This document shows, piece after piece, positions 4,864 through 58,467 of a stretch of 64,000 bases of DNA. Position numbers and translations under genes: made by a program. This DNA comes from Squalus acanthias (lineage: Eukaryota), in the NCBI GenBank assembly GCA_030390025.1, contig CM059432.1, forward strand, positions 69,814,001 through 69,878,000, written 5' to 3'. Numbering within the stretch: the stretch's first letter is position 1; each line of letters starts with the position of its first letter. A model generated the notes under the pieces. It did no database searches, was not told where the DNA came from, and worked only from the letters and a program-made list of their open reading frames with translations.

Positions 4864-7788
4864 GGCCCAGAAATTGGGCTACTTACCGCCATCCGTTTGT
4901 GCCACAATCCTGAAAAAAATGGTGGCCGGCACTCTACCGCCTGCCTCTGGTGTGGGACTCGGCGGCCGCCATTTTGGTGAAGGCCTTAGTGTTGCCAATA
5001 GCAGCACTGGCCCTGGATATGCAAATATGGAATGTGTGACGTCACGCCAACTTAATGTCACACAGTGTGAACATGGAGCTTTGCGCTGAGTTTAGCGCTT
5101 GCTCTTAAAAGCGAGCTTGCAACAGACTTACAGAGATGCTGTCAGCACTTCTTAAAGGGACACACACATCTTTCAGGTAAGTTTGCATTTAATATTTTGC
5201 ACTGGATTTTTTTGATTTTATTGAAGTAGTGGCTTGCTGCAATAGATGTCAAAAGTTTTTAAAGTGTGCATGGAATGCTGCTGGACACTTGCAAGACCTC
5301 GGATGGTAAAGGAAGGCCTCTCAGAAGACAGAAATTTCTGGAAATACTCAGCAGGTCAGGCAGCATCCGTGGAGAGAGAAACAGAGTACACGTCTCAGGT
5401 CGAGATGCTGCCTGACCTGATGAGTATTTCCAGCATTTTCTGCTTTTATTTCAGATTTACAGCATCCGCTCGCAGAGGGAAGAGGAAGACGCAGAAGAGG
5501 AAGATGCAGGAGAGGAAGATGCAGAAGAGGAGGAAGAAGAAGTGGAGGAAGCAGAAGAGGAGGCAGCAGAAGGAAGAATACAATCCCAGAGAGCCACTTT
5601 GTGGCTGGGATATCCGGGACGGAATGATCCGTCTGCAGTCCCAGTGACCAAAACCCCAATTCCCCTTTCAACCTTTGTCCCATACCTTACCTCCCTCTGG
5701 TACTGACCATCACAGCATCCTCTTGGCCACAATGCTGAAATAAAAGATACCACAAAGCAAACTTTCCAATCCAACTTTGTACATCTATCACAAGGGAATG
5801 ATAGCATGGTGCTTATGTCACTGGACTAGTAATCCAAAGGCCTGGACTAATGATCCGGGGATATCAGTTCAAATCCCACCGCTAGCAGTAGGGAAATTTA
5901 AATTTATTTAATTAAATAAAAACTACTGGATTGTTGTATAAAACCCATCTGGTTCACTAATGTCCTTTAGGGAAGGAAACGTGACTCCAGACCCTCAGCA
6001 ATGTGGTTTACTCTTAACTGCCCTCTAAAATGGCCTAGCAAGCCACATCAAACCGCTAGGAAAACCTTCACCTCACAGACTGCAGCAGTTGAAGAAGGTG
6101 GCTCACCACCACCTTTTCAAGGGCAATTAGGGATGAACAATAAATGTTTTCCTTGCCAGTGACACCCACATCTCATGAACCAATAACAGAAAAATCTATC
6201 CATCCAATATAACACCAAGAAATTAACTCATCACCCGTATGCATTCTCTTAGTGACTGTCTTGTTTGTGCCTTTGCCTATCCTACTGATATCATGCAGTG
6301 CTACCACAGTTGCTGCAGCATGGCTGATGGAAGGCTGCTGACTTTCAGTGGGGGACACCAAAAATGCCCTTACTGGTTGACCTTGAGGAACTGGTGGCTG
6401 GCAGTGTGAAATCGAGTGACAGTGTTTCTTCTTCACTCTCCTCTCCCTCTTCTTGGTTAACCTGGGCTGGGCAGGTTGCGTTTCTTGGGTGTGTGAAATG
6501 AGGAAGGCACACGGGTAGAGTTGTGGTGAGGGGAGGGTGGGAAAGCAAGAGGTGCATGCGAGAAGCAGTATAACGTATGAAGATACCGGCATCTTGTATT
6601 CTTCCAGCCCCGCCGCTGGCCAAGGGCTCAGCCATGCCCCTCCATGAATGGCCTGCACCCTCTCCTCCAAGGGGGTCAGCTGAAGCTAGGAATGAGAGAT
6701 GTGCCTCATGATTGGTACAGATTGTTGGTAGGTGAGTGATTTGGGCCGGGGGTGGCGGGGGGGAAGTTGTGCATTGAGAAGTGTGTGAGGCTAGTGATGC
6801 AATTGGTAGGAGACAGCTTTTGAAGATGCATTCACTGGTCTGAGGTCATGAAGCTTCTTTGGGCACTGGAGCCAGATGGTGGGGGCGATACTGGTGGTGG
6901 CAGTGATGGCCTCAGTGATGTGGTCCCACATCATTCTTTCTGGAGGGCCTCCTGGCCCCTGTGGGTAGAGGACCTCTCTTGCAGTGTTGACCACCTGCAC
7001 AAAGCTGAAGTGCTGCATGTGAGACCCTGGGTGCCCCTTCCCTGGCTTGCTGAGCCTTTTGTGTTAGTGCTGAAGCACTTCTCCCATTTTTTGAGGTGTG
7101 GAAGGGAATTCAGCTTTAAGAGCTGAAGACTCCCATTCAGGAATGTTTTTTCAAATGTTAATTTTTTTTAAAAAGACAGTAGCGCTGTAAGGGCTGAAAA
7201 CTACAATTTTTACTTCATTTTTATTTTTAGCAGTTCAGAAGGCATTGCCCTTTTAAGCAAACGACATGCATTGCCCTTTTAATATCCTGCAATGCCTTGC
7301 GAACTCATAGCCTCACTTTCAGAGGCTGTTGGAAGATGCAACGCTGATTCTGGACACCACATTCGGCACTGATGCCTGCACTAACGCCACCAGGAGGGTG
7401 TTACACGGTCAGTTTAGTGCTGTGCTACAAATCTTTAGTCCCCAGCGTGAATTTTTTTCTCCTTAGTGATGTAGTGTCGCAGTCCAGTTTCTATGCCTGT
7501 GAGTCTGCTGAACGCTGGGTTTTCATGGCGAGCTTAGGACCCAGCGCTGAACTCAGCACTAAGGTCCAAGTTTGCCGTGGTGACATTAGTCGGCGTTGCA
7601 CACCGACTGACGTCACCTCTCCCTAATTTGAATTTCTAGTGCCATCGCTCTTACCGGCAGTGCTGCCGGCCCTCGTAAAATGGCGGACACTGCGGGACCT
7701 GCCACCCGCTGGCGAAAGAATGGCGGCGCCGTCTTTTCACTAAATTTTGACGGTAACGGGTGGCATAAAGCACCCGAATTTTTAGCTC
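4864..7788. mobile_element. Internally deleted PIF/Harbinger element, inverted relative to 2256-3478
   Basis: Termini GGCCCAGAAATTG / GAATTTTTAGCTC. Acidic transposase C-terminus (+) at about 5465-5647; Myb gene remnants (-) at about 7055-6250. Contains a Penelope hairpin (about 5325-5468) and a SINE (5794-6195). Confidence 0.75.
5794..6195 (+). mobile_element. tRNA-headed SINE-like internal-deletion derivative of the LINE-like element at 33378
   Basis: About 5794-6060 aligns with 33378-33720, and about 6065-6185 aligns with 36525-36645. A-box-like TAGCATGGTGC and B-box-like GTTCAAATCC are present. Confidence 0.85.
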
Positions 7789-13723: not shown

Positions 13724-13944
13724 TTGCTGCAGTGCATCTTGTAGATGGTACACACTGCAGTCACGGTACGCCGGTGGTGGAGGGAGTGAATGTTTAAGGT
13801 GGTGGATGGGGTGCCAATCAAGCGGGCTGCTTTGTCCTGGATGATGTCGAGCTTCTTGAGTGTTGTTGGAGCTGCACTCGTCCAGGCAAGTGGAGAGTAT
13901 TTCATCACACTTCTTACTTGTGCCTTGTAGATGGTGGAAAGGCT
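13724..13944 (-). mobile_element. Fragment of the tRNA-headed LINE family; more pieces at about 18795-19130 (-), 19213-19460 (+) and 49645-49702 (-)
   Basis: Peptide YSPLAW..AAPTTLKKLD.IQDKAARLIG is shared with the element at 33378-36654. Confidence 0.85.
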
Positions 13945-16936: not shown

Positions 16937-17692
16937 TATATGTTAATCCTCTCCCAGTTTTCTAGCATTAACAAATTGCAGAACGTTTTATCTCCACAAT
17001 GATTTATATTTTGTTGCTAACAAATACCTGGTACATACAGGCAAATTGGTTCAAATATTGATTTACTGTTTTGAATATAGCAATCAAGATGACAAACTGA
17101 AATAAGAATCCATAGGATTCATTAATTGTAATCATGCACACACAATCAAAATTGTTCCTCATACATGGCAACCCATAAAGTAGAAATGGCGAATATCAGA
17201 CATTAGCCATTTTACCTTTGGATGATTCACTTGGTTGATTTTTTTATTGAGTGGGAGTTTACCTTTTAGCCTCATCAGCCTGCATTTTATACTGACTAGT
17301 TGACTTGCCATGGTGCCTTTCCACTGCATTTTTACCCAGCAGTAGAAATTAAATTATTTGTATTGATCTCTTTGAGTAGTGAAATATTTCTTGTGGTACA
17401 CAGTTGATTGCATATTATGCAATCGAGCCAATTTTTCAATTTCACACTGCTGGCGGGAGCCTCGCCTTGTAGCGAGGGAATTCAGGAAATTATAGGCACA
17501 TTGCTTTCGATATTCTGTTCAGTAAAATGAATGGATGGAAAATCATGGGGAGTGTACCTTCACTCTCTCAATATGAATGGGTCAGTGAACAAGACTCTCT
17601 GTCGGTAGTGAAAACTCAGAAAATTAACCCAAATGTAACATCTGTTTGACTGGAACTATTTTTCCAAGTGCATCCCCAGCCTCATTCCAGAT

Positions 17693-18140
17693 GAAAGAAA
17701 GAAAGACTGGCATTTATATAGTGCCTTTCATGACACAGCCAATGAATTACTTTTTGAAGTGTAGTCACTGTTTTAATGTGGGAAATGCAGCAGGCAATTT
17801 GCGCACAGCAAGGTCCCACAAACTGCAATGTGATAATGACCAGATAATCTGTTTTTGTTATGTTGGTTGAGGGATAAATATTGGCCAGGACACTGGAGAT
17901 AACTCCCCTGCTCTTCTTTGAAATAGTGCCATGGGATCTTTTATGTCCACCTGAGAGGGCAGACGGGGCCTCAGTTTAGCATCTCATCTGAAAGACAGCA
18001 CCTCCGACAGTGCAGCACTCCCTCAGCACTGCACTGGAGTGTCAGCCTAGATTTATGTGCTCAAGTCCCTGGAGTGGGACTATGAACCCACAACCTTCTG
18101 ACTCAGAGACAAGTGTGCTACCAACTGAGCCACAGCTGAC
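17693..18140 (-). mobile_element. Deu-domain SINE (SacSINE1-like); partial copies at about 40517-40730 (+) and 54235-54410 (-)
   Basis: Minus strand has a tRNA head (TGGCTCAGTTGG A box, GGTTCA B box), then GCACTGTCGGAGGTGCTGTCTTTCAGATGAGA (Deu core as recalled), then a (TTTC)n tail. Confidence 0.8.
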
Positions 18141-18369: not shown

Positions 18370-18780
18370 GCAGCTGAAGAAATCAATTTTGAAGAGGCTT
18401 CTGAAGACATAGAGAGATTTAGGAAGGTGTAGAGACTTAGGAAGAGAATTTCAGAGTGGAAGGGTGTAATGGTGGAAGGTCCACCACTGATGGTGCAACA
18501 GAGGGAGGGGAGATCAGAAGCATGAGGGTATGACCTGGAATATAGGACTGGAGGAAGTTGCAGAGATAGGGGGAAGCAGGAGCATGGAAGGATTTGTAAA
18601 TGAAGATGAGGATTTTGAAATCAATGTTCTTGGGGATGGGAAGCTGGCAGAGCTCTGAATGACTGAGTTTTTAAAGGATGAAGTTTGGGAAACCAGTGAA
18701 GAGAGAGTTGAAGAAGCTGAGCCTGAAGGGGATGGAGGCACGAATGAGGACTTCAGCAGTGGTGGGAACAGAAGTAGGTG
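18370..18780 (-). mobile_element. Decayed L2-type LINE 3' fragment
   Basis: Minus strand translates IDFKILIFIYKSFH, like the L2 C-terminal RI.FKIL...YK.LH motif. Confidence 0.55.
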
Positions 18781-20617
18781 AGAAGGTTATGGTGTGCCTT
18801 CTTTTTGAACCACTGCAGTGCATATGGTGAAGGTGCTCCTACAAGACTGTTAAGTAGGGAGTTTGAGAATTTTGACCAGTGACAATGAAGGAACGGCGAT
18901 ATATGTCCAAATCAAAATGGTATGTGACCTGGAGGGGAATGTCAAGGTGATGGTATTCCCGTGCACCTGCTGTCCTTATCTTTCTAGGGGGTGGAGGTAG
19001 CGGGTTTGAGAGGTGCTGCCGAAGAAGCCTTGGCAAATTGTTGCAGTGTACCCTGTAGATTGTACACACGGTACACTGATGGTGGAGGGAGTGAATGTTT
19101 AAGCCAGTGGGTGGGGTGCTGATCAAGGCAGCATTTGACTGTGTGTGGCACCAAGGAACCCTAATAAAACTGAAGCCAGTGGGAAGCGGGGGTGAATCTC
19201 TCCAGTGTTTGGAGTTTTACTTGGCACAAAGGTAGATAGTTGTAATTATTGAAGGCAATCATCTCAGCCCCAGAACATCGCTGCAGGAGTTCCTCAGGCA
19301 GCGTCCGAGGCCCAACCATCGTCAGCTGCTTTATCAATGACCATCCCTCCATCATAAGGTCAGAATTTGAATTGTTTGCTGATAATTGCAGTGTTCAACT
19401 CCATTCGCAATTCCTCAGATAATGAAGCAGTCCATGTCCGCATGCAGCAAGACCTGGACAATGTTTCAGGTTAGGAGAAATGTTAGCTCTCTTTCTCTCG
19501 CCACAGACGCTACACCTGCCGAGTATTTCCAGCTTTTTAAGTGTTTATTTCAGATTTCCAGCATCCGCAGTATTTTATTTTTGTATGGAAGTAAATAAAT
19601 TATTTTTGCTTTCCTGTGTGACCAGAAGGAGCAGGAGAGCTGCTCCAGGCCCCACAAGGAAAGCTTAGGCTTCCCCTGCTGTGATCTTGCCCCGTCCCGA
19701 TCGTCGGGAACCCCGCAAGACAGCTCAGCAGCCAATCCCACCACTTACCTCAGTCGCAGTGGGTGGTCTCTGGGCCAGAGTGGGTGGCCCCACTAAAGTA
19801 CCTATGGATCTTCCCTTGCCGATGGGAAACCCTCAAGGAGCCCGCCCTGCATAAATAATGATCCCCGATCCAGCAGAATCGGTGTAAGGGTAAAATTCAG
19901 GTGAATCGCTTCTACATATTCAACAGTTCTATTACAAAAACTGGACTAACAATTCGGGGCTTTAGCGCCACCCGTTACCGCCAGATTCAGTGGAAAAGGC
20001 GGCAGTGCTGCCGATATCCGCGCTCGTGAAATTTATGCAGATCATGACATCAGTGAGTGTGCAACACTCACTTGATGTCCGATCAACCATTTTCAACTTC
20101 GCCGCTCCACTTACCGGCATGCGTTAAGTGCTGAGCAAGCATTGACATGCAGGAAGGAGGCTCCAGCAGGGATCATCAGCCACAACTTGCAGCTGACGTG
20201 TTTCTGCAGTTTGACTAGCTTTGTACAACTTCCTGCAACTCCAGTAGCTTTATAAATTTCTTACAAAGTCCTAAAGTAACAGGGAGTGTTGGGCCAAGTG
20301 GAGAACACCTTCATTCTTAGTTAAAAACTTCTGCTCACTCCACTTGCTCACAGTCATGGGGGCTCTACTTGCAGACCCCCTCATGCTCGAGTATCTTTGG
20401 GAGAGGAAATGGAGGCAGTGAAGAAGATGAGAAGATGTACGCAGAGGGAGGAGGAGGAGGGCCAGGATGGCTCTGAACAGGAGGCCTTACCTGCCTTACC
20501 CACCTAGCTTCAGAGAGCTATTCTCTTATATCCACTTAAGCAAGGAGCAGTGTATTAGGAGGCTCCGCATCACCAAGGAGGTGGTCACAGAACTCTGCCA
20601 CCTCCTGCAACCAGACC

Positions 20618-22532: not shown

Positions 22533-24544
22533 TCTGAGAGCAGGGCAACCACGGCTCTCCCAGTGGCAGTCAAGGTCACCCTGACATTCATTTTATTTGC
22601 CAGCGGATCCTTCCAGTCTGCAGCAGGAGGCATAGCTAACATCTCACATTTCGCCATCTATCGCTACATCCAGGAGGTCACAGATGCGCTCTACACCAGG
22701 AGAAGGGACAACGTGTTTTACTCTCGGAGCAGAGAGAAGCAGGACTAGCGCGCATGTGGCTTTGCCAGGATAGCGAGCTTCCCCGTGGTGCAGGGCGCCA
22801 TTAACTGCACACACGTGGCTTTGGAGGTGCCGCATAAGAATCCTGAGATCTTCCGTAACAGCAAATGCTAGCACTCACTTAATGACCACGCCTAGTGATT
22901 CCTGATGGTCAATGCCCGCAATCCTAGCAGCAGTCTTGATGCCTTCATCCTGTGTCAGACCGTGCCAGCAATCTTCCAGCCACCACATGAAACTTGAGGG
23001 TGACTGCTCGGAGACAAGGGCTATCCGTTCTGCACCTGGCTCATGACTCCCCTCCGCAACCCCACCACTCGTGCCCAGAACTCATCAAATGAGAGCCATG
23101 CTTCCACCAGGAACATCATCGAGCAGACCATCGGCCTACTGAAGCAATGGTTCCACTGCCCTCCAGTGCTCAGCGGAGTGGCTGTCCTATTTCGTGGTGG
23201 TCTGCTGCATGCTTCACAACTTGGCCATCAAGGGCGCAGACCTTGCCAATACGGATTGCGGGACCACTTCAGGAGGAGGATGAGGGAGAGGAGGAGGAGG
23301 AGGAGGAAGAGGAAGATGAGCAAGAGAAAGAGGACGAGGAGGAAGGGAGGAGGCAGGCAGCCAATCCACCTTCCGGACGGGCTGTCCGTGAATGCCTCAT
23401 TAGACTCCTAGTCCAATGAATGAAAGCCCAGATCCCCATTGCTCAGCACATCCCCATCATACCATCCCTCCGTCATGGAATATCACAACATCCTCCTGGG
23501 CACAAAGCTGAAATGTGAGCCACCACGAAAGATTCCAAACAAGGTTATTAAATTTATCAACAATCAATTTACACATACTATATGAACAAATCACCGTTGT
23601 TCAATTCCTTGGTGTCTGTCGTTCGGGTGACCTTTCCTGATCTAGTGCTCCTACCAAGTGCTCCCCCAGTGGATGCAGCATGGCTGGTGGAAGGCTGCTG
23701 AGTTTCCATGGGGGAAACTTCAGATGGCCCTGCATGTGTTTTCGAGCAGCTCTGGACGTAGAAGGCCCGGCTGTAGACTGCACCACCTCGGCATGAGCGG
23801 CAGCAGTCTAGCCTGGCTGGCTGACAGGCAGCAGCAAGGACAATGGTGGAGTGGCAGTGGTGGAAATAGGAATGCTGTCATCCTGAGAGAAGACAGCAGA
23901 TTCCTGCTCCACTGACTCACTGCCACTCCCCCGGGGTGGCTCTTCGGCATTCCTAGCAATCTATTGGAGCACAGATTGATGGGCTGCTGCAACACCCTGC
24001 AAGCCCCGCTTGACAGTGGTAATCCCAGCCACAATGGTAGCAGTCTGAGCTTGCGTGGCAGCAAGCTGAGACTGCATGAGAGTAGTCTGCACTTCTGCTG
24101 CAGCACTAAGACGTTGGGTCACTTCCGCCTGTGCTGCAATGGCAGCAGCGACATCGCACATCACATCATGTCTGGGTCTGGGTCGACACGGCCTCTTCAG
24201 GAGTTGTTCATCATTTCCAGCCTGGAAATCCTGGGCTCCAAGCTCTGAACAAAGTCCCAGCCAATGTTGGAGGCAGACTCCGCAATGCTCCTTGACATTG
24301 CCAACAGACTATCTGGCAGGCTTGCCATTGCACCTAGCAATTTGGTGTGCATGCCCATCACCCTTCTTCTGAAGGCCGCCCCATCGAGGTCCTCATCAGA
24401 GTCCTGTGCAGCAGAACGCATGCGCAAACTTGCCCTCCGGGGAGCTGGCCCCCGAGCTACCCTTTACCCCAGGCCTTGCTGCAGCCCACTCGTGCCTGGT
24501 GACACACCCTGTGCAGATCCCACTTCTACACCAGCCTCTAAATA

Positions 24545-27500
24545 TAGAAACATAGAAAAATAGGAGCAGGAGTAGGCCATTCGGCCCTTCGAGCCTGCTC
24601 CACCATTCAATATGATCATGGCTGATCCACTATCTCAATACCATATTCCCGCTCTCTCCCCATACCCCTTGATGCCTTTTGTGCCTAGAAATCTATCTAT
24701 CTCCTTCTTAAATATATTCAGTGACTTGGCCTCCACAGCTGTCTGTGGTAGAGAATTCCACAGGTTCACCACCCTCTGAGTGAAGAAATTTCTCCTCATC
24801 TCAGTCCTAAATGTCCTACCCCTAATCCTTAGACTGTGACCCCTCGTTCTAGACCCCCAGCCAGGGGAAACATCCTCCCTGCATCCAGTCTGTCTAGCCC
24901 TGTCAGAATTTTATACGTTTCAATGAGATCCTCTCTCATTCTTCTAAACGCTAGTGAATACAGGCCTAGTCGACCCAATCTCTCCTCATACGACAGTCCT
25001 GCCATCCCAGGAATCAGTCTGGTGAACCTTCGCTGCACTCCCTCTATGGCAAATGCATCCTTTCTTAGGTAAGGAGACCAAAACTGCACACAGTACTCCA
25101 GGTGTGGTCTCACCAAGGCCCTGTGTAGTAAGACATCCTTGCTCCTGTACTCAAATCCTCTTGCAATGAAGGCCAACATACCATTTGCCTTCCTAACTGC
25201 TTGCTGCATCTGCATGTTTGCTTTCAGTGACTGGTGTACAAGGACACCCAGGTCCCTTTGTACATCAGCATTTCCCAATCTATCACCATTTAAATAATAA
25301 TCTGCCTTTCTGTTTTTCCTACCAAAGTGGATAACTTCACATTTATCCACGTTATGCTGCATCTGCCATGCATTTGCCCACTCACTCAACTTGTCTAAAT
25401 CGCCTTGAAGCCTCTTTGCATCCTCCTCACAACTCACAATCCCACCTAGTTTTGTGTTGTCAGCAAACTTGGAAATATTACATTTGGTTCCCTCATCCAA
25501 ATCCTTGATATATATTGTGAATAGCTGGGGCCCAAGCACTGATCCCTGCGGTACCCCACTAGTCACCGCCTGCCACCCCGAAAAAGACCCATTTAATCCT
25601 ACTCTCTGTTTCCTGTCTGTTAACCAATTTTCAATCCATACCAGTGAATTACCCCCAATCCCATGTGCTTTAATTTTGCACACTAACCTCTCATGTGGGA
25701 TTTTATCAAAGGCCTTGTGAAAATCCAAATACACCATATCCACTGGTTCTCCCTTATCTATTCTACCAGTTACACCCTCAAAAAAACTCCAGTAGGTTTG
25801 TCAAACACGATTTCCTTTTCATAAATCCATGTTGACTTTGTCTAATCCCGATTTCTAAGTGTCCTGTTATCACATCCTTTATAATAGACTCTAGCATTTT
25901 CCCTACTACTGATGTTAGGCTAACCGGTTTGCAGTTCCCGGTTTTCTCTCTCCCTCCTTTTTTAAATAGTGGAGTTACATTTGCCATCCTCCAATCTGCA
26001 AGAATTGTTCCATAATCTACAGAATTTTGGAAGATGACAAGCAATGCATCCATTATTTCCATGGCTACCTCTTTTAGTACTCTGGGATGCAGATTATCAG
26101 GCCCTGGGGATCTATCAGCTTTCAGTCCCATTAATTTCTCCAGCACTATTTTTTTACGAATATTAATTTCCTTTAATTCCTCCTTCTCACTAGACCCTTG
26201 GTTCCCTAGCATTTCTGGGAAGTTATTTGTGTCCTCTTCTGTGAAGACAGAACCAAAGTATTTGTTTAATTGCTCTGCCATTTCCTTGTTCCCCATTACA
26301 AATTCTCCCGTTTCTAACTGAAAGGGACCTACATTTGTCTTCACTAATTTTTTTTTTATACTTGTAGAAGCTTTTACAATCCACTTTTATGTTCCTTGCA
26401 AGTTTACTCTCATACTCTATTTTTCCCCTCTTAATCAATCTCTTGGTCCTTTTTTGCTGAATTCTAAACTGCTCCCAATCCTCAGGCTTGCTACTTTTTC
26501 TGGCAACTTTATATGACTCCTCTTTGGATCTAATACTATCCTTAATTTCTTTTGTTAGTCATGGTTGTGCCGCTTTTCCTTTTGTGTTTTTGCACCAGAA
26601 AGGAATGTATAACTGTTGCAATTCATGCATTCGTTCCTTAAATGTTAGCCATTGCCTATCCACCATCATGCCTTTTAATGAAGCTCCCCAATCTATCATA
26701 GCCAACTCACTCCTCATACCTTCATAGTTTCCTTTGTTTAGATTTAGGACCCTAGTTTCAGATTGGACTTCTTCACTTTCGATCTTAATGAAGAATTCTA
26801 TCGTATTATGGTCACTCTTCCCTAAAGGACCCCGCACATCAAGATTATTAATTAACCCCTTCTCATTGCACAATACCCAATCTAGGATAGCCTGTTCCCT
26901 AGTTGGCTCCTCAATGTACTGGTCTAAAAAACCATCTCGTATACACTCCAGGAATTCATCCTCCACAGTATTATTGCTAATTTGGTTTGGCCAGTCTATA
27001 TGTAGATTAAAGTCACCCATGATTACTGTAGTACCCTTGTTACATGCATCTCTAATTTCCTGTTTGATACCATCCCCTACATTACCACTACTGTTTAGAG
27101 GCCTATAGACAACTCCCACCAATGTTTTCTGCCCCTTGGTGCTTCTTAGCTCCACCCAGACTGATTCTACATCTTGATTTTTCTGAGCCAAGATCCTTTC
27201 TCACTATTGTTCTGATTTCATCCTTTACTAACAACGCCACCCCACCTCCTTTTCCTTTTTGCCTGTCCTTCCTAAATATCAAATATCCTTGGATATACAG
27301 CTCCCAGCCTTGGTCACCCTGCAGCCATGTCTCCGTAATCACAATTATATCGTATCCGTTTGCATCTATTTGCGCTGTTAATTCGTCTACCTTATTACGA
27401 ATGCTTCGTGCATTCAGATACAGTGCCTTTAGATTTGTCTTTTTAACATTTTTAGACATCTTAACATTTTTTTGTACTATGGCCCTATTTGTCTTACCAT

Positions 27501-31168: not shown

Positions 31169-33377
31169 GGGCTAAAAATTCTGGGGTTTAGCGCGACCCA
31201 TCATGCCAGATTCAGGGAAAAAATGGCAGCCGCCACACTTCTGCCTGCTGCTGGCGAGTACCGTGGCGGCCGCCATTTTCGGGTGGCCAACAGTGCTGCC
31301 GATGTTGGTGCTCGCCAAAATTATGTAGATGATGCAGATCATGATGTCGGTGAGTGTGCAATGCTCACTTGACGCCCGATCTGTGAGTTTCGACTTCGTC
31401 ACTCCACTTACCGGCATGCCTTAAGTGCGACCAGCTGAGCAAACATTGAGAAGCAGGAAGGAGGCTCCAGCAGCGGTATTTAAAGGGATCATCGGCAACA
31501 ACTTGCACCTGACATGTTTCTGCAGTTTGACTGGCTCTGTGCAACGTTTTGCAACTCCAGCAGCTTTATTAACATCTTTCAAGGTTCTAAGGTGACGGGA
31601 GTGTTGTTGCAAGTGGAGAACGCCTTCATTCATATTTAAAGGCTTCTGCTCACAACACTTGCTCACAGTCATGGGGGCTCTACTGGCAGCCCCCTCATGC
31701 TTGAGTATCTTACAGAAAGGGAATGGAAGCAGCGAAGGAGACGAGAAAATGCGCGCAGAGTGAGGAGGAGGAGGGCCACTAGCCTCTCAACAGGAGACCT
31801 TATCCACCTAGGGTCTTCCGAAAGCACTTCTCTTATCTCCACTTAAGCCAGGAGCAGTGTATTCGGAGGCTCCACTTCACCAAGGAGGTGGTCACAGAAC
31901 TCTGCCACCTCCTGCAACCAGACCTGCAGCCTGAGAACAGGGCGACCACAGCTCTCCCAGTGGCAGTCAAGGTCACGTGGCCCTCAATTTCTTCGCCAGC
32001 AGATCCTTCCCGTCTGCATCAGCAGACATAGCTAACATCTCCAAGTTCGCCGTCCAACGCTGCCTCCGGGAGGTCACTGAGACTCTCTCCACCAGGAAAA
32101 GGGACTACGTTTGTTTCTTTCTGAGTAGTTTCCAGCCTGGAAATCCTGGGCTCCAAGCTCTGTGCAAAGCCCCATGTAATGCTGGAGGCAGACTCCTCCA
32201 TTCTCCTTGACATTGCCAAGAGGCTCTCTGGCAGGCTTGCCATTGAAACCAGCAATTTGGTGTGTCACACTTCTTCTGAAGGCCGCCCCATTAAGGTCCT
32301 GACCTGAGTACTGTGCAGTAGAACTCGCGAGCGAACTCGCCCTCTGAGGAGCTGGCCCCTGAGCTACCCTTTTCCCCTGGCCATGCTGCAGCCCACTCGT
32401 GCCCGGTGCCTCACCCTGTGCAGATCCCACTTCTACACTAGCCTCTAAAGTACGTGCTGTGCCAGTTTCTGAGCTGGTGTCTGCGAGTGACAGAAGCAAT
32501 GATGCTGTGTCTTCTTCTTCCCACTCGCTCTCCTCCATCACCTCGAGGACGGGCTGGTGCTTGTTCTTGATTATCTGAAAGCAGAAAGGCACAAGAGGCA
32601 GGTTATGGTGTGGGGAGGGGGGAGGTAAGCTTGAAAGTGAGTAAAGATTGTGGGATGAGGGGGAAGTGGAATGTGAGAATAAGGATTAAGAATGAGCATA
32701 CCATTGTTGTCCCCATGGGCTTCAACCTCAACAGTTGCCACGACCTCCATGATCTGCTGCCCATTTATCTCCAGCAGTCTCTCCTCCAGTTAGCTGAGGT
32801 CCTGGCTGGCAGCTTGCCCCGTCTGCCACTGCTCCCTCCTGTTATGCGTGATCTTGGCCTGCAAGAGAAAGGGAAATGTGTGGTGCAATGTTTTTGGGTG
32901 ATGTGTCTTCCATAGTTGAATAGCTGTCAGGGTGTGCAAAGTGTGAGATGTGGCTGTGAGTGTTGCAGCAGTGGTAAGGTTGTGAGTGTTAAGTGAAGCT
33001 ATGATTGTGAGTTCTGAGTGGTGATAGGTAGAGATTGTTGCTAGGTGAGTGATGGGGGTGTGGTGCATTGAGCAGTGTGTGAGGCTTGTGGTGCAGATAG
33101 TCGGATATGGCATTTGCTGAAGCCTTCACTCACTTTGACCTGCCGTGTGAGGTCAATAAACTTCTTGCGGCACTGGCTCACCGACCTGGGGACCACAGTG
33201 CTGGCTGTCACATAGGCGGCTATCTCCTGCCAGAGCCTTCGAGATGTATGGGGCGCGAGCTTTGTGCCAGTCTGTAGGAAGAGCACAGCCCACCTCCTCT
33301 CCACGGCAACCACCAGTGCCTCAAGAGCCGCGTCTGAGAATTTTCAGTCTCTCTCCCTGTGCTGGAGCTCTGCCATC
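31169..33377. mobile_element. PIF/Harbinger element with a central deletion: transposase 5' half (+, 31671 to about 32127) fused to the Myb gene (-, ATG at 33376)
   Basis: TIR GGGCTAAAAATTC. Transposase peptides MGALLA and ALNFFAS.SF. Myb exon 1 MAELQHRERD*KFSDAALEALVVAVERR...WQEIAA...QCRKKF.DLTR.VK|GT; exon 2 AKITHNRREQ. Confidence 0.88.
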
Positions 33378-36300
33378 GGGAACGGTAGCATAGTGGTTAT
33401 GTTACTGGACTAGTAATCCAGAGGCCTGGACTAATGATCCAGGGACGTGAGTTGAAATCCCAACACGGCAGCTGGGGAATTTAAATTCAGTTAATTAAAT
33501 AAATCTGGAATAAAAAAGCTAGTATCAGTAATGGTGACCATGAAACTATCGGATTGTCATAAAAACCCATCTGGTTCACTAATGGCCTTTAGGGAAGGAA
33601 ATCTGCTGTCCCTACCTGGTCTGGCCTATATGTGACTCCAGACACACAACAATGTCGTTGACTCTTAACTGCCCTCTGAAATGGCCTAGCAAGCCACTCA
33701 GTTGTACACAACCGCTATGAAAAACAATAATATGAATAAAACCGAATGGACCACCCGGCATCGACCTCGGCACCAGCTTTGAACACAATGGCACACCCAG
33801 CCCAGTCAACCCTACAAAGTCCTCCTCACTAACATCTGGGGACTTGTGCCAAAATTGGGAGAGCTGTCCCACAGACTAGTCAAGCAACAGCCTCACATAG
33901 TCATATTCACGGAATCATACCTTTCAGCCAATGTCTCAGATTCCTCATCACCATCCCTGGGTATGTCCTGTTCCATCGGCAGGACAGACCCACCAGGGGT
34001 GGCAGCACAGTGGTATACAGTCGGGAGGGAGTGGCCCTGGGAGTCCTCAACATTCTACACCCCAGGAAGTCTCATGGCTTCAGGTCAAGCACGGGCAAGG
34101 AAACCTCCTGCTGACTACCATCTACCAGCCCTCCCTCAGCTGATGAATCAGTACTCCTCCATGTTGAACACCACTTGGAAGAAGCACTGAGAGTAGCAAG
34201 GGCACAGAATGTACTCTGATGTGTCATCACCAAGACTGGCTCAGTAGCACCACTACTGACCGAGCTGGCCGAGTCCTGAAGGACATAGCAGCTAGACTGG
34301 GCCTGCGGCAGGTGGTGAGAGAACCAACACGAGGGAAAAACCTACTTGACCTTGTCCTCACCAATCTACCAGTTGCAGATGCATCTGTCCATGACAGCAT
34401 TGGTAGCAGTGACCACTGCACTGTCCTTGTGGAGACGAAATCTCATCTTCACACTGAAGACACCCTCCATCGTGTTGTGTGGCACAACCACCATGCTAAA
34501 TGGGATAGATTCAGAACAGATCTAGTAGCTCAAAACTGGGCATCCATGAGGCGCTGTTGGCCATCAGCAGCAGCAGAATTGTATTCCACCACAATCTGTA
34601 ACCTCATGGCCCGGCATATCCCTCACTCTACCATTACTATCAAGCCAGGGGACCAACCCTGGTTCAATGAGGAGTGTAGAAGAGCATGCCAGGAGCAGCA
34701 CCAGGCGTACCTAAAAATGAGGCCAACATTGGGAAGCTGCAACACAGGACTACATGCATGCTAAACAGCGGAAACAGCGTGCTATAGACAGGGCAAAGCG
34801 ATCCCACAATCAACAGATCAGATCAAAGCTCTGCAGTCCTGCCACATCCAGTCGTGAATGGTAGTGGACAATTAAACAATTAACAGAAGGAGCAGGCTCC
34901 ATGAATATCCCCATCCTCAATGATGGCGGAGCCCAGCACGCGAGTGCAACAGACAAGGCTGAGGCGTTTGCAACCATTTTCAACCAGAAGTGCCGAGTGG
35001 ATGATTCATATCGGCCTCCTCCTGATGTCCCCACCATCACAGAAGCCAGTCTTCTGCCAGTTCGATTCACTCCACGTGATATCAAGCAACAGCTGAGCAC
35101 ACTAGATACAGCAAAGGCTATGGGCCCCGACAAATCCCGGCTGTTGTGCTGCAGACTTGTGCTCCAGAAGTAGCCGCGCCTCTAGCCAAGCTGTTCCAGT
35201 ACAGCGACAACACTGGCATCTACCCGACAATGTGGAAAACTGCCCAGGTATGTCCTGTCCACAAAAAACAGGACAAATCCAATCCGGCCAATTACGGCCC
35301 CATAAGTCTACTCTCAATCATCAGCAAAGTGATGGAAGGTGTCGTCGACAGTGCTATCAAGCTGCACTTACTCACCAATAACCTGCTCACCGATGTGCAG
35401 TTTGGGTTCTGCCGGGACCACTCGGCTGCACACCTCATTGCAGCCTTGGTCCAAACATGGACAAAAGAGCAGAATTCCAGAGGTGAGATCAGAGTGACTG
35501 CCCTTGACATCAAGGCAGCATTTGACCGAGTGTGGCATCAAGGAGCCGTAGTAAAATTGAAGTCAATGGGAATCAGGGGGGAAAATCTCTACTGGCTGGA
35601 GTCATACCTAAAACAAAGGAAAATGGTTGTAGTTGTTGGAGGTCAATCATCTCAGCCCCAGAACATCGCTGGAGGAGTTCCTCAGGGCAGTGTCCTGGGT
35701 CAAACCATCTTCAGCTGCTTCATCAATGACCTTCCCTCCAACAAAAGGTCAGAGGTGGGGATGTTCGCTGATGATTGCACAGTGTTCAGTTCCATTCGCA
35801 ACTCCTCAGATAATGAAGCAGTCCATGCCCGAATGCAGCAAGACTTGGACCACATTCAGACTTGGGCTGATAAGTAGCAAGTAACATTCACGCCACAGAA
35901 GTGCCAGGCAATGACTATCTCCAACAAGCGAGAGTCTAACCAACTACCCTTGACATTTAACGGCATTACCATCGCCGAATCCCCCACCATCAACATCCTG
36001 GGGGGTCACCATTGACCAGAAACTTAACTGGACCAGCCACATAAATATTGTGGCTACAAGAGCAGGTCAGAGGCTGGGTATTCTGCAGCGAGTGTCTCGC
36101 CTCCTGACTCCCCAAAGCCTTTCAACCATCTACAAGGCACAAGTCAGGAGTGTGATGGAATACTCTACACTTGCCTGGATGAATGCAGCTCCAACAACAC
36201 TCAAGAAGCTCGACACCATCCAGGACAAAGCAGCCAGCTTGATTGGCGCCCCATTCACTCCCTCCACCACCGGCACAACGTGTCTGCAGTGTGTACCATC

Positions 36301-36654
36301 TACAAGATGCACTGCAGCAACTCGCCAAGGCTTCTTCGGCAGCACCTCCCAAACCCGCGACCTCTACCACCTAGAAGGACAAGTGCAGCAGGCGCATGGG
36401 AACACCATCACCTGCAAGTTCCCCTCCAAGTTACATACCATTCCGACTTGGAAATATATCACCGTTCCTTCATCATCGCTGGGTCAAAATCCTGGAACTC
36501 CCTACCTAACAGCACTGTGGGATTACCTTCACCACAAGGACTGCACCGGTTCAAGAAGGCAGCACACCACCACCTTCTCAAGGGCAATTAGGGATGGGCA
36601 ATAAATGCTGGCCTTGCCAGCGATGCCCACATCCTGTGAACGAATAAAAAAAAA
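33378..36654 (+). mobile_element. EN-RT LINE-like element (CR1/L2/Jockey-group RT) with tRNA-derived 5' head and no visible ORF1; ORF decayed
   Basis: Head has A box TAGCATAGTGG and B box GAGTTGAAATCC. APE motifs TNIWGL, IFTESYL, EPTRG..LLDL and SDH; RT motifs LDIKAAFDRVWH, GVPQGSVLG and FADD. Ends in AATAAA and an A-run at about 36644-36654. Confidence 0.9.
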
Positions 36655-37350: not shown

Positions 37351-40300
37351 TATAGATACATAGATACATAGAAGATAGGAGCAGGAGTAGGCCATCCGGC
37401 CCTTCGAGCCTGCTCCGCCATTCAATGAGATCATGGCCGATCCTTCAATTCAGTATCCCGTCCCCGCCTTCTCTCCGTAACCCTTAACCCCTTTTGCCTG
37501 TAGAAATATATCTAATTCCCTCTTAAATATATTTAATGAGCTGGCGTACACTGCCCTCTGTGGCAATGAGTTCCACAGGTTCACCACTCTCTGAGTGAAG
37601 AAATTCCCCCTCATTTCTGTCCTAAATGGTTTAGCCCTTATCCTTAAATTATGTCCTCTAGTTCTGTTCTCACCCGCCAAGGGAAACATTCCTTCTGCAT
37701 CTAATCTGTCTAGACCTGTCAGAATTTTATACACTTCTATGAGGTCCCCTCTCAATCTTCTAAACTCCAGTGTGTACATCCCTAAACTACATAGTCTCTC
37801 CTCATAGGTCAATCCCGCCATTCCTGGTATCAGCCTGGTGAATCGCCGCTGCACCCCCTCCATGGCAAGAACATCTTTCCTCAGATGAGGCGACCAAAAC
37901 TGTACACAGTACTCGAGGTGTGGTCTCACCAGTGCCCTGTACAGCTGCAGCAAGGTATCCCTGTTCCTGTATTCCAACCCTTTTGCTATGAAGGCCAGCA
38001 TACCGTTTGCCTTCTTGACCGCCTGTTGCACCTGCATGCTCGCCTTCAGTGACTGGTGTACAAGAACACCCAGGTCTCTCTGTACTTCCCCCTCTCCCAA
38101 TTTATTGCCATTTAAATAATAATTTGCCCTCCCGTTCCTGCACCCAAGGTGGATAACTTCGCACTTGTCCACATTATAGTGCATCTGCCATTTATCCGCC
38201 CAATCACCCAGTCTGTCCAAATCGCTCTGGAGCTTCCTGGTCTCCTCCTCTGAGCCCACCCCCCCTCCTAGTTTAGTGTCGTCTGCAAATTTGGAAATGC
38301 TGCATTCGACTCCCTGATCCAGGTCATTAATATAAATTGTGAACAGCTGGGGACCCAGGACAGATCCCTGTGGTACCCCACTTGTTACTGCCTGCCATTC
38401 AGAAAATGAGCCGTTTATTCCAACTCTCTGTTTTCTATCTGACAGCCAGTTCTCTATCCACGTCAATACTTTCCCCTTTATCCCATGAGCTTCAATTTTC
38501 CATGCTAATCTTTTATGTGGGACCTTATCGAAGGCCTTTTGGAAGTCCAGGTACACCACATCTACTGGCTCTCCCCCATCTATTTTACCAGTTACTCCCT
38601 CAAAAAATTCCAATAGATTAGTCAAGCACGATTTACCCTTTGTAAATCCATGTTGACTCTGTCCTATCCTGTCCCCATTTGCTAAGTGCTCGGCTATTTC
38701 ATCCTTAATGATGGACTCCAGCATTTTGCCCACAACTGATGTAAGGCTTACAGGTCTGTAATTACCTGCTTTTTCCCTACCCCCCTTTTTGAATAGTGGG
38801 GTAACGTTAGCTACCCTCCAATCCATGGGCACTGTTCCCGAGTCTAATGAATTCTGAAAAATCATGCTTAGTGCATCCGCTATCTCTAGGGCCACCTCCT
38901 TCAGTACCCTAGGATGCATGTTATCAGGCCCTGGGGATTTGTCCGCCTTCAATCCCTTTAGCTTCCTTAACACCATATCCTTAGAGATATTGATTTGCGT
39001 CAGTTCCTCCTTTGCCAATGTCCCTATTTTTCCCGATATCCCAGGGAGGTTTTTTGTGTCTTCCTTCGTAAAGACTGACCCAAAGTATGCATTTAGTTGG
39101 TCTGCCATTTCCTTATTTCCCATTATATATTCCCCCGTATCTGACTGCAATGGACCAACTTTGGTTTTCACCAGTCTTTTCCTCTTGATATACTTATAAA
39201 AGCTTTTGGAGTTAGTTTTTATATTTTCCGCCAGCTTGCTTTCGTAAGCTATTTTGCCCTTCTTGATTAAGCCCTTTGCCCTCCTTTGCTCTATCTTAAA
39301 CTGTTCCCAATCTTCCGCTCTGGCGCGTTTTTTGGCTATTTTATACGCCCTATCTTTGGATTTTATGCTGTCTCTAATTTCCCCTGTTATCCACGGTTGA
39401 GTCACCTTTTTAGATTTCCTTTTATGCCAGATTGGTATAAACAATTTTTGCAATTTTGTCATTCTATCTTTAAATGCTTGCCATTGTTTATCTACCTCCA
39501 GTCCTCCCAGGAACGTTGTCCAATCAGACCTACTCAGTTCCCGTCTAATGGCATCATAATTCCCCTTGTTTAAATTCAGGACCTGAGTCTCTGAGTCAAT
39601 TTCTTCGCTCTCCATTTCGAGTGAGAAATCGATCATGTTATGATCGCTCTGACCCAAGGGTCCCCGTACAACAAGATTACTAATTAGTCCCTTCTCATTG
39701 CACAGTACCCAGTCCAATATAGCCTGTTCCCGAGTTGGTTCCTCGACATATTGATCCAGATAACCATCCCTTAAACACTCAAGGAATTCCTCCTCCTCAT
39801 TATTTTTACTGATTAGGCTAGTCCAATCTATATGTAAGTTAAAGTCACCTATGATGACAGCTGTGCTCTTATTGCACGCTTCTCTAATTTCCCTCGTGAT
39901 GCCCTCCCCAACCTCTATTTTACTATTTGGAGGCCTATATACCACTCCTATTAATGTTTTTCGCCCCTCGCTATTTCTTAGCTCCACCCATATAGATTCT
40001 GTATTAACTGAGTTAATATCCTTCCTTTCAATTGCATTTATCCCCTCTTTTACCAGCAATGCTACCCCTCCTCCCTTTCTTTTTTGTCGATCCTTCCTAA
40101 ATACTGAATACCCCTGTATGTTAAGCTCCCAGCCCTGCTCACCCTGCAACCATGTTTCCGTAATCCCAATTAGATCATAATTATTAACCTCTATTTCCAC
40201 AGCTAATTCATCTACCTTGTTCCTGATGCTTCTCGCATTAAGGTATAAAACCCTCAGGCTTTTTTTATGCTCACATTTTTTATGAATTAGTTTGGCCCTT

Positions 40301-40365: not shown

Positions 40366-41839
40366 ACATGGGTTTCTAGCATTGATACAACATAGATATT
40401 ATACAATTATTTTAAGTTCTACTTTTCTGCAAGATTGTATATATCGTTTATTGCAGAATTGTAAATATGATGCTGCCATGCATTAACTGCCATACTTAGG
40501 AGTCTTTTCACTATTTGTCCTGGCCAATATTTATCCCTCAACCAACATCACTAAAACAGATTATCTGGTCGTATCACATTGCTGTTTGTGGGAGCTTGCT
40601 GTGCGCAAATTGGCTGCCACGTTTCCTACATTACAACAGTGGCTACATTTCAAAAGTACTTCATTGGCTGTAAAGCGCTTTGGGACGCCCAGAGATTGTG
40701 AAAGGCGTTATATAAATGCAAGTTCTTTCTTTGTTTATCCTTTATGCGGTAGAGCAAAATCCACCCTCAGTTTTTTCCCCATTATCCCTCCAATCAAGAT
40801 GGCACTGATTGACGTTGAGATGTGGTTCCACGGTAGATGGCAACCCTCCAGCATCTTGCCCAAGTGGCCACTCTTCATTGTGTGAGCCTATTAAGTGAAT
40901 GTCAGCAGATGACAAACACCAATATGGACTGGTTGGGCTGGACGAACTCTTTCCATGTTGTAATTTCTATGTAATTACAAAGGGTTATTGATGGTGACGG
41001 TAATTTAAAACATAATGGCTGTGTATTTTGGCAGGATTCTTCCGATTTCCCACTGTAACTTCGGCTGAAGAGCAGCTGATACCGTGGTGAAGCTGTGTAA
41101 ATGGCCATTTTTAGCCATTTATGCTGTAATCGCTGGGTATTCCACCAATCACCCGCCAGAGAACCCCTGTGGAAATTCTAGGTGAAGTTTTATTAAAAAT
41201 AGATACCATTAGTTGAATGGGTATATTTTCAGTAAAGGTACATTTGGCATTTTAAGGTTTTTGGGTAATATTTGCCTAGATATTCCAGTGAGTCATGGTA
41301 AGGATGCAAATTGGATGGAAAATTAGGGTTGAAGCAAGTTTCCACCTCATCCTTAATAGTTTTCCCCTTTCAACAGTATAGTAATATCAACAGTAAATTA
41401 AGTCAACTAACTAAGTTAAATTGAAATTGTGCAAATGAATTAGCTTAATAACTGGAAATAACCCACTTAGATTTTGTTAACAACAAAGGGGTTATTTCCA
41501 CTAATGGTAAAAAACTGAAAATGACAGGAGCAACACAGAGGGCTCGTGAGCCACATATGGCTCCAAAATCTGCCAACCCTGTTCTTGAAACCCATGCAAC
41601 TCAATGTTGTTTGCACTAATGCATGGAACTTTCAACTTTGTTGGGGGTGTAAAATTGGTTGTATCTAATCAGCCACTCATTATATACCCAACCCAATTTT
41701 CCTTTCCATCAATGGCATCTTGTTCCTACTAGGGGTTTCATTCATTTATTCTTTTACACTATTTGGACTTGGAAGGTGTGGAGACGAGTCCTACTTCCAG
41801 CAGTATCTCAGCATTTGCATGGTATCCGTGCTTTCATTT

Positions 41840-55324: not shown

Positions 55325-57183
55325 ATGGCTGATCCCACTCCCCGAGAGAGAGCTCGTCGTTTCACGGACGAGGCATTGGAGGCATTGGTCATTGGAGTAG
55401 AGTGAAGTGCTGTTCCCGGACGCTGGAAGGAGACCATTGCCCCAGGTCTTCAGGGCAATGTGGAGGGAAGTGGCCCAGGAGGTCTCGGCCACTAGTGTGG
55501 TCGTACAAAGCCTGACACAGCGCCAGAAGAAATTCAACGACCTCACTCGGGTGGTCAAGGTGAGTACATGCTTCAACAGATCCTACGTACCAGCATCTGA
55601 ACCTCAGTCTGCACACACTGCACAAACCCCACACCCCCACCACTCACCCACCAAGCATCTGCACCTACTCAAACTCACATCCACATCTCACGCCTTGCCT
55701 ACAATCACAGCTATTCAACTACGGCAGGCATATCTCCTAAACACATAGCTGGACTCTGACTCACACACATTCGTTTCTCTTGCAGGCCAAGATGGCTCAC
55801 AATAGGAGGGAGCAGCAGAGAACAGGCGGGGGTGATGTGCAGCTCCAGCAGCTTTCAGACCTGGAGGAGCGAGTGCTGCGACTCATTCGGCAGCAGGTGG
55901 TAGGGCACTGTGGCCGTTGGCAATGTCAACCCCCTTGGGGCAACAACGGTATGTTCATCCCCTCTCCTTCTCTCATCCCACTTCCTCCTCACACCACAAG
56001 CCTTTCCCACTTTCCAGCTCCTGATACTGTCTGCATGCCTTGCTCCCTTCCTGACCCCTACCCTCACCTTAACGCGAGTCTTGTGCCTTTATGCTTTCAG
56101 AGAATGAGCAACCAGATGACCAGCCTGTCCCTGAGCCCCCCACTGAGAGGAAGGAGAAGGGGAGGAGGAGGAGCAAAGCACCGCGTCACTGCATCTCTCA
56201 GCCCCAGGCACCACCTCAGATACTGGCACTACGCGATCTTTAGAGGCAAGTTTAGTAGAGGGGTCTGCACTGGGTGATGCACCGGGGACGAGCGGGCTGC
56301 AGCAAGGCCAGGGGGAAAGGGTAACTCGGGAGCCAGCTCCCCAGAGGGGACTCAGATGAGGACCTCGATGGGGAAATGTTCACAAGAAGGGTGATGGCCA
56401 TGCACTCCGATATGATAGGTGCAATGGCAAGGGTGCCCGAGAGCCTGTCGGCAATGGTAAGGAGCGTGGAGGAATCCACCACCAACATTGCACAGAGCTC
56501 TGTGCACACCATGGAGCCCATCATTTCCACTCTGCAGAGGATGGTGGACTCCCAGAGAGACCGTGCGGATCCAGACCTCATGACGTGTATCATGGGCGAT
56601 GTGGCAGCTTCCATTGCAGCACAGGCGGAAGCGACGCAACGTCTTGGTGCTGTCATGCAGTCAATGGTTGGTGGCATCGAATCTCAGACTGCTCTCATGC
56701 AGTCTCAGCTTGATGCCACGCAAGTTCTGACTGCTGCCATCATCGCTGGGTCCACCACAGTCCACCGGAGATCTTACAGTGTCGCAGCAGGCAACCAATC
56801 TGTGCTCCAGCAAATTGGTAGGGATGCTGAGGTGCTGCCCCGGGGGAGTGACAGTGGGTCAGTGGAGCAGGAACCTCTCTCAGGATGACAGCATTCCTGA
56901 TCCCACCACTGCCACTCCGCCATTGCACTCGTCGCTGCCTGTCATCCAGCCAGCCCAGACTGCCGCCGCCCATCCTGAAGTGGTGCAGTGTACAGCCGGG
57001 CCTTCCAGGCCCAGAGCTGGTCGAGGGCGTCTTGCAAGGCCATCTGTATTCTCTGGCACCGGCACTCAGCAACCTTTCACCAGTCCTGCTGCAGCCACTG
57101 GGGAGACACTATGTAGGAGCAGTAGATTAGGGAAAGGTACTGTAAAGAGGGCAAGTAAGGGAATTTCAAGGGTGATTAGTTAA
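55325..57183 (+). pseudogene. Harbinger Myb/SANT-like DNA-binding partner gene, 3 exons (55325-55559, 55786-55948, 56101 to about 57183), frameshifted
   Basis: MADPTPRERARRFTDEALEALV...MWREVAQEVSATS....LTQRQKKFNDLTRVVK|GTGAG; TGCAG|AKMAHNRREQQRTGGG; donor GTATG at 55949; TTTCAG acceptor ending at 56100. Confidence 0.85.
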
Positions 57184-57344
57184 CGTTGTTGTTGTATATA
57201 TGTGGTTCCTGAATTTGGATAAATTTATTATTGGAATGTTGCAGATTTGGGGCTGTGTCTCATTTCAGCTTTGGGGTGTGGTATGGAATGAGAACTTGAT
57301 GGAATGATGGGGACGTGCTGAGCAACCGGGAAGTGGCCTCGAGT

Positions 57345-58467
57345 TCATTGGAACCGAAGTCTGATGAAGTGGTCATGGACCGCCCTTCCACAAGGCCAAT
57401 TGAGTAGTGGCCTCCTCCATCGCTGCTGTTCATGCTCCTGCTCCTCTTCGTCGTCTTCCTCCTCGTCCTCGTCCTTCTCTACCTCCTCCTGAGGTGGTGC
57501 GGCTATGCCTGGTGGCAATGGCTGCGCCCTCATGATAGCCAAGTTGTGCAGCATGCAGCAGACGACGACGAAAAGTGACACTAGCTCAGCCAAGTACTGG
57601 AGGCGGAACCGTTGCTTGAGCACTCCGATGGTCTGCTCAATGATGTTCCTGGTGGCAGCATGGCTCTCATTATATGAGTTCGGGGCACGAGTGTTGGGGT
57701 TGCGGAAGGGAGTCATGAGCTAGATGGAGAGCGGATAGCCCTTGTCTCCCAGCAGCCAGCTGCGAGCTTGATGTGGTGGCTGGAACAGAGCTGGCGCAGG
57801 ATGAAGGCATCATGGCTGCTGCCAGGATAGCGGGCATTGACGGTGAGGCTTCGCCTGTGTGTGGCACACCAAATGCACATTAAGTAAGTGGTAGCCTTTG
57901 CGGTTACAGAATACCTCTGGATTGTGATGCGGTGCCCGCAAAGCGACGTTGGTGCAGTCAATGGTGCCCTGCACCATGGGGAATCCCGCTATCCTGGCAA
58001 AGCCACATGCACGCTCGCGCTGCTTCTCTCTGGTCATGGGGAAGGAAATGTTGTCCCTTCTCATTCTGTAGAGAGCATCTGTGACCTTGCAGATGCAGCA
58101 ATGAACGGCGAACTGCGATATGTTAGATATGTCTCCTGTCGCACACTGGAAGGATCCGCTGGCGTAGAAATTATGAGCGACGGTGACCTTGAGAGAGCCG
58201 TGGTGCTGTTGATGTGAGGCTCGAGGTCTGGCTGCAGGTGGTGGCAGAGCTCTGTGACCACAGTTCCTGGTGAAGCGGAGCCTTCTAAGACACTGTTGCC
58301 TCAGTGAAATTGACGTAGGAGAAATGCTGCCGGAATACCCTGGGAGGGTAAGGCCTCCTGTTGAGAGCCCTGTTGGCTCTCTTCCCTCTGGCCACATTTT
58401 GCACTCTTTCTCTCTGCCTGCGACGTTGATGCCGGAGGGCGAAATCCAGTGCCAGTACAGCCCCCAT
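57345..58467 (-). pseudogene. HARBI1-like DDE transposase pseudogene (intronless)
   Basis: MGAVLAL...RRPYPPRVFR, NFYASGSFQ, GFPMVQGTIDCT, NRKGYH, PGSSHDAFILRQ, LGDKGYP and [16 protein letters not shown]; several frameshifts. Confidence 0.92.

Follow-up and report, generated by a model that had tools for sequence, protein, structure and literature searches.

A tRNA-headed Zenon LINE family of sharks and rays as a candidate protein-coding transcript of RNA polymerase III

A LINE family of sharks and rays carries a tRNA-derived, SINE-type head in front of its coding region throughout the family, and on balance we consider it probable that this Zenon family is transcribed over its full length by RNA polymerase III (Pol III), with translation that begins without an AUG. 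Judged from sequence, Pol III transcription of the element is likely: a tRNA-type promoter, a consensus free of TTTT and the lack of an in-frame start codon together point to a protein-coding element made by Pol III. AUG-independent initiation appears to be the best reading of the frame, at a confidence a little short of even.

The copy under study lies in a window of 64,000 nucleotides of Squalus acanthias (GCA_030390025.1, contig CM059432.1, positions 69,814,001 to 69,878,000), by which we mean the whole stretch of DNA analyzed; coordinates are positions within it (Table 1). It is a dead copy, in which frameshifts and stops interrupt the coding region and leave it scattered across several frames, and it is 94.7% identical to the family consensus. 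That consensus, drawn from 68 aligned rows (coverage 13 to 68, thinnest at both ends), is 3,315 nt long, opens with a tRNA-Thr-like head with intact A and B boxes, and retains an intact frame of 973 codons from stop to stop; the median identity of copies to it is 95.4%. It has no ORF1, as an earlier note on this DNA had claimed, and its one frame encodes the endonuclease (EN) and reverse transcriptase (RT) recognized in the window copy (Pfam PF14529, E = 7e-06, just under its cut-off; RVT_1, E = 5e-26). The ending in AATAAA and an A run was also correctly read, the second of two such signals running into A9 at 36646-36654.

The family is large: the surrounding 3.7-Gb genome gave 4,329 first-look candidates with a query across the leader-EN junction and 3,224 with an EN-only query. 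Because the 40 best-scoring copies of thousands were scored per search, the sample is biased to close subfamilies. A runs were read at the 3' ends of copies, some with later A-to-T changes, and target-site duplications did not exceed chance (at least 7 nt in 1 of 13 copies; null 11%). Built-in terminators at the 3' ends were considered and rejected, as 4 of 53 ends open with at least four T, which resembles tail decay. No relative turned up in the viral contigs searched.

Other repeats surround the insertion. Just upstream is a Myb/SANT-like frame on the minus strand (33041-33343; Pfam PF13873, E = 5e-08), presumably of a Harbinger-type transposon, with related pieces at 2873-2982 and 55518-55667. 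A MITE-like family of short inverted repeats has many copies in the window (2980-3136, 3783-3922, 5301-5469, 9374-9470 and 63741-63958).

Table 1. Features of the element and its relatives in the window
Feature	Position	Strand	Remarks
Full-length decayed SINE-headed Zenon LINE copy	33378..36654	+	3102/3275 aligned bases match family consensus
tRNA-Thr(AGU)-like head, extra arm before B box	33378..33464	+	First base common to full-length copies
Pol III A box TAGCATAGTGG	33386..33396	+	
Pol III B box GAGTTGAAATCC	33449..33460	+	C>G at 33454 here; intact in family
Leader body common to short SINE form, not Deu domain	33465..33723	+	
Predicted hairpin, 7-nt anticodon-like loop CUAGCAA (33686-33692)	33676..33701	+	MFE and centroid
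GCT triplet complementary to central AGC of loop, in EN-RT frame; candidate frame-setting site	33714..33716	+	
Single EN-RT reading frame	33708..36591	+	973 codons in consensus, first Met 287; broken here
APE endonuclease domain, approximate limits	33813..34440	+	Pfam PF14529, just under cut-off
Reverse transcriptase domain	35266..35868	+	Pfam RVT_1 match
Short 3' UTR	36592..36654	+	AATAAA at 36600 and 36643, A9 tail, no internal terminator; target-site duplication absent
Short non-coding form (SINE)	5794..6197	+	Same head, leader and tail; coding region absent
Internal family fragment	13724..13944	-	
Rearranged older family fragments	18779..19459	- and +	18779-19097 minus, 19122-19459 plus

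Family membership and the tRNA-derived head

By its sequence the element is an elasmobranch Zenon LINE of the CR1 group, as published by Stuart et al. (2026; PMC13343379), who report Zenon from hagfish and coelacanth as well as from sharks and rays, in every case lacking ORF1 and ending in a poly-A tail. Our family shows the same traits (no ORF1, a single APE and RT frame, a poly-A tail), and its first 400 nt are near-identical by eye to those of SquAca_Zenon-1, with lengths of 3,315 and 3,314 nt, respectively (PMC13343379). Lack of ORF1 and possession of an A tail are thus known Zenon traits (PMC13343379); beyond them go the head, the avoidance of T runs and the AUG-less frame. On these that paper is silent: tRNA, polymerase III and the start codon go unmentioned in its main text, as does tRNA in its supplement. 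No autonomous Pol III-headed LINE is described in the titles and abstracts searched, a scope that leaves subscription journals, Repbase and Dfam outside. Within the first 400 nt, compared by eye, the head opens all seven elasmobranch consensuses of Table S2 in PMC13343379 (SquAca_Zenon-1 to -3, CarCar, ScyCan, RhiTyp and HypSab; five species) and is absent from all three hagfish and coelacanth consensuses, whose 5' ends may be incomplete.

The nearest proteins share 36 to 46% identity over the query and are mostly single EN-RT frames of about 930 to 970 aa; one comes from a sponge, according to its source's label. In a 128-row tree of unlabeled clades, the family falls apart from the CR1s of the window and groups with single-ORF proteins of invertebrates (SH-aLRT 85 to 97). 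The invertebrate Zenon-like LINEs (P0001-P0046) resemble it in having one EN-RT frame of about that length and group with it away from vertebrate CR1; they differ in that their database entries give the protein a Met at the EN or immediately ahead of it. Among 80 fetched relatives, none has the head by BLAST and none has an A and a B box together upstream.

The A and B boxes that the earlier note saw in a tRNA-like head are both present. The family B box is GAGTTCAAATCC; with a G in place of the C at 33454, the window copy has a poorer promoter than the family. Alignment of the head to a host tRNA with an AGT anticodon scores 41.5, versus a maximum of 33.5 in 1,000 shuffles, whereas its score against host tRNA-Lys (31) falls below that maximum. 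As a whole tRNA the head is degenerate: ARAGORN calls no tRNA on it, and Rfam scores of 19 bits for the copy at 33378 and of 23 to 27 bits for 4 of the 11 further loci lie below the cut-off of 29.

Attachment of the head, seen in one copy by the earlier note, proves to be family-wide and no accident of that copy. All 40 scored matches of the leader-EN junction query span the junction. The EN-only query was chosen so as not to select for the head (40 scored, 30 fetched, n = 28 once the window copy and one duplicate of the first set were dropped), and the same leader lies upstream of the EN in 28/28 of these copies, 13 of which keep the B box and 9 of which start within 4 nt of the same first base. 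Full-length copies begin at the 5' end of the tRNA. Across both sets, 22 copies truncated beyond position 150 have no other common upstream sequence, if neighboring repeats and a single duplicated locus are set aside. Contigs from runs of four organisms (three DNA-type, one guessed to be RNA) cover the EN and share a sharp 5' boundary at 33378. Five runs guessed to be RNA contain 0.24 to 0.33 of the element's words, and two contigs of X16, a run guessed to be RNA, bridge the leader-EN junction.

The short form joins consensus position 345 to 3185, a junction reproduced within 5 nt in 26 of 29 fetched loci, which were selected with a junction-spanning query. This SINE with the same head and tail may be an internal-deletion form of the LINE, or a SINE may have donated its head to the LINE. 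Lepidopteran Zenon similarly has an internally deleted partner, Persaeus, which, as described in PMC6740152, differs from the shark short form in lacking a tRNA head or Pol III promoter. The shark element shares with published accounts of tRNA-derived SINEs (DeuSINE/SacSINE1; PMC5499810, PMC4824008) an A/B-box tRNA head, a body, a LINE-derived tail and no internal terminator. Those SINEs are short and non-coding, traits found here in the short form alone, whereas the full element is 3.3 kb long with a selected 973-codon frame. An early reading of the head as SacSINE1/Deu (PMC5499810) was rejected, the body having no Deu domain; with the alignment in the supplement of PMC7245038 as the Deu reference, two Deu-bearing elements of the same genome score no better than shuffles against the head, body and tail. 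A tRNA-headed SINE with a Deu-domain motif does occur in the window at 17692-18140 (minus strand) and at 40516-40671 and is common in fetched flanks; it is likely the SacSINE1-type element and is unrelated to the Zenon head.

Scarcity of T runs

As the earlier note reported, the sense strand of the copy (3,278 nt) holds one TTTT, at 34977-34980, which must be a later mutation, since the consensus has TCTT there. Expectation for this strand is 4.8 at 20.7% T, a little below the rough 5 to 6 at about 22% T first estimated, and the depletion in the copy is modest, as was then said. The family consensus contains no TTTT (P = 0.29 against a first-order Markov model). Against synonymous shuffles the zero compares with 1.9 expected and is not significant (P = 0.11), whereas runs of TTT or longer in the ORF are depleted (5 observed versus 11.4, P = 0.002), and A, C and G runs there are normal by the same shuffles. 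Of the findings that the note named as refuting its idea, a head confined to one copy and a consensus with normal T4 frequency were both looked for, and neither was seen.

CR1 sense strands in the window are indeed rich in TTTT (22 runs in 8,879 nt, four fragments). Copies of the family carry 0.24 TTTT per kb (33 in 134,917 nt) versus 2.1 to 4.6 in CR1 copies of the same genome, which were taken from the flanks of fetched loci because a CR1 DNA query of the genome matched nothing. The observed/expected ratio of TTT is 0.43 in the family versus 0.76 to 1.23 in 47 headless relatives (those of the 80 fetched with a frame of at least 500 aa), an imperfect control, as they are T-richer (22 to 37% versus 19%) and distant; they contain 5 to 49 TTTT each. 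Low Phe is not unique to the family, with 1.6 to 1.7% in P0005 and P0006. An older subfamily was tried as an independent test of the T runs and abandoned, as the search with an old copy of 70% identity brought up young copies for the most part. The tRNA-Lys genes of the host end in at least four T yet contain internal TTTT that is read through, so four T are not an absolute stop and terminate only in some contexts.

The CR1-type copies that served as T-run controls belong to at least two lineages (10968-12675, 24544-27420, 37360-40245 and 60437-62736). A pair of repeats of about 2 kb, 74% alike (22570-24545 and 56236-58192), carries 0 to 3 TTTT per strand and lacks any RT match with the protein of the family, so that low TTTT counts occur in other repeats too. 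The genome also holds tandem arrays of tRNA-Lys(UUU) genes at a spacing of about 1.78 kb (L304-L329; G000 C29, C1484, C2208 and others).

Reading frame, leader and start of translation

Changes shared among copies (non-CpG, in at least a quarter of rows) comprise 33 synonymous and 17 replacement, against 435 and 1,193 among singletons (Fisher P = 1.4e-8); in the EN stretch, 7 shared changes are silent and 3 are replacements. Such purifying selection indicates that source elements needed their protein, the EN included. The first Met of the frame is residue 287, and the last EN motif is at 240, so the Met lies after the endonuclease. The earlier note had argued that either unusual translation or mobilization in trans would be required; a selected frame without Met before residue 287 makes the case for the former stronger than was then held, and the same selection disfavors mobilization only in trans. 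The ATG at 33788 that it singled out is present in the copy but is a product of decay at a CpG, ACG to ATG (T in 22 of 66 rows).

In one subfamily, 18 of 19 rows have a TAA in frame immediately ahead of the opening of the frame. At consensus positions 401, 410 and 455, subfamily changes leave the protein unaltered when read in the EN frame but alter it in the frame of the out-of-frame AUG. The silent changes at 401 and 410 point to the EN frame as the one read in the leader and, with the TAA, bracket the start to about 70 nt without an in-frame AUG. Eight AUGs precede the opening of the frame in the consensus, and none enters it without a stop. The out-of-frame AUG, which lies within these 70 nt and follows an A-rich tract, is ATA in 38 of 61 classed rows, the window copy included. 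No GT-AG joint is among the joints listed.

Upstream of the frame lies the predicted hairpin, which includes a two-codon AUG-GCC-UAG (33681-33689) in the EN-RT frame. Its loop and the GCT triplet are unchanged in the main consensuses of five species, compared by eye, and the bases around GCT vary. In 50 of our 51 copies, GCT and ORF are separated by a multiple of 3; the four published rows from species other than dogfish have, by eye, a spacing of 18 or 21 nt up to the frame, and the published dogfish rows differ from our copies by indels. The 3-nt variants sit in an AAC/AAT repeat, which slips by 3 anyway. As in PKI of the dicistrovirus IGR IRES described in PMC4132737, the 7-nt loop opens with C-U, its central triplet could pair with a downstream in-frame triplet and no AUG is involved. 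The predicted pairing here is 3+1 bp (three anticodon pairs and one adjacent), in contrast to the five pairs of the IAPV IRES, at least four of which are required (PMC4132737). Thermodynamics lend the leader structure no support, its folding being on a par with that of shuffles (z about 0), and a scan against Rfam gave no IRES match.

Two further observations concern the leader. In the helix at 33591-33618, one A-U pair of dogfish is G-U in stingray and G-C in whale shark (consensuses of Table S2 in PMC13343379, by eye; a single pair), a change that is possibly compensatory. A second, shorter SINE junction at 33703 (runs X21 and X23) skips the GCT triplet, the hairpin being followed immediately by the final ~75 nt of the tail.

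In the model that we favor, TFIIIC would bind the internal boxes, and Pol III would start at the first base of the head, read 3.3 kb and stop where the flanking DNA presents its first T run, as for SINE transcripts; these steps are jointly likely, and avoidance of T runs is proposed as what enables Pol III to read that far. The uncapped RNA would then recruit ribosomes through its leader, with initiation between 33708 and about 33775, for which our confidence is just under even. That the CUAGCAA hairpin sets the frame by pairing with the in-frame GCU, like the anticodon mimic of the dicistrovirus IGR IRES, is speculative and rather doubtful. By target-primed reverse transcription, begun at the A tail, the protein would copy the RNA that encodes it, and it would mobilize the short form as well. 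The AATAAA beside the A tail, which also fits Pol II, is a point against this model.

Competing readings and significance

A chimera of SINE and truncated LINE confined to this locus, by one-off juxtaposition or template switching, might be suspected because SINEs with the same head are abundant. Small-RNA/LINE chimeras of the U6-L1 type have a junction unique to each insertion, whereas the shark element has one junction, family-wide: every junction-query match (40/40) spans it, selection by EN alone brings up the same leader (28/28), and it recurs in five species, so that we give a one-off event practically no weight. The fusion could instead be family-wide and the coding RNA a capped Pol II transcript, begun in the head region or by host read-through, with the boxes a fossil or in the service of the short form and the scarcity of T runs a matter of composition. 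LINEs are generally Pol II units, the element has AATAAA at its 3' end, and the absence of TTTT alone reaches only P = 0.11. Lepidopteran Zenon, as described in PMC6740152, has an ordinary 5' UTR and no Pol III promoter. Nevertheless, full-length copies begin at the 5' end of the tRNA, the boxes are kept in five species and the depletion of runs is specific to T. A scanning ribosome would moreover meet eight AUGs first, none entering the frame without a stop, and the joints listed include no GT-AG. We consider a Pol II transcript unlikely.

Pol III might also make only the RNA that is copied, the headed element being a long passenger of masters with a normal start that supply the protein in trans. 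The lack of an in-frame AUG before the endonuclease would fit, as would the paucity of intact copies: the longest open frame at the RT query is 815 aa among 144 scored, and five rows of Table S3 in PMC13343379 give 0 to 3 intact copies per family. It is the changes common to headed copies, however, that bear the purifying selection, in the EN stretch as elsewhere (7 silent versus 3 replacement), and the 28 EN-selected copies offer no alternative 5' end, which makes supply in trans very improbable. Slim, too, is the chance of a start at the hairpin AUG (33681) with read-through of the UAG, or at the out-of-frame AUG with a frameshift. The hairpin AUG is in the EN frame and in good context, and the second AUG is present in six of the seven published consensuses. 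Against the former, one subfamily has a second in-frame stop downstream, the TAA, in 18 of its 19 rows, and the whale shark consensus is one base shorter between hairpin and GCT; against the latter, ATA replaces the AUG in 38 of 61 classed rows and the leader changes are silent in the EN frame only, the same two observations that weakened a programmed frameshift from this AUG when we considered it.

The Pol III reading with AUG-independent initiation thus remains our preferred one. In its fullest form, sharks and rays would possess an autonomous retrotransposon amounting to a genuine protein-coding gene of Pol III. Its uncapped RNA of 3.3 kb would have been cleared of terminators, a hairpin mimicking an anticodon would set a start that needs no Met, which would make it the first IRES of this kind outside viruses, and the abundant SINE of the genome would be its deletion form; taken as a whole, we think this unlikely.

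Textbooks separate LINEs, as coding Pol II units, from SINEs, as non-coding Pol III parasites. If our preferred reading is true, a family that combines a SINE promoter with a frame under selection, lacks an AUG and is poor in T runs, present in thousands of candidate copies and kept across sharks and rays, breaks this split. It would also be a natural case of a protein from a Pol III transcript, to our knowledge otherwise known only as an engineered case, reportedly that of Gunnery and Mathews in 1995. The family also provides a SINE and a partner LINE that share both ends, and the conservation of a SINE body would then have a testable reason.
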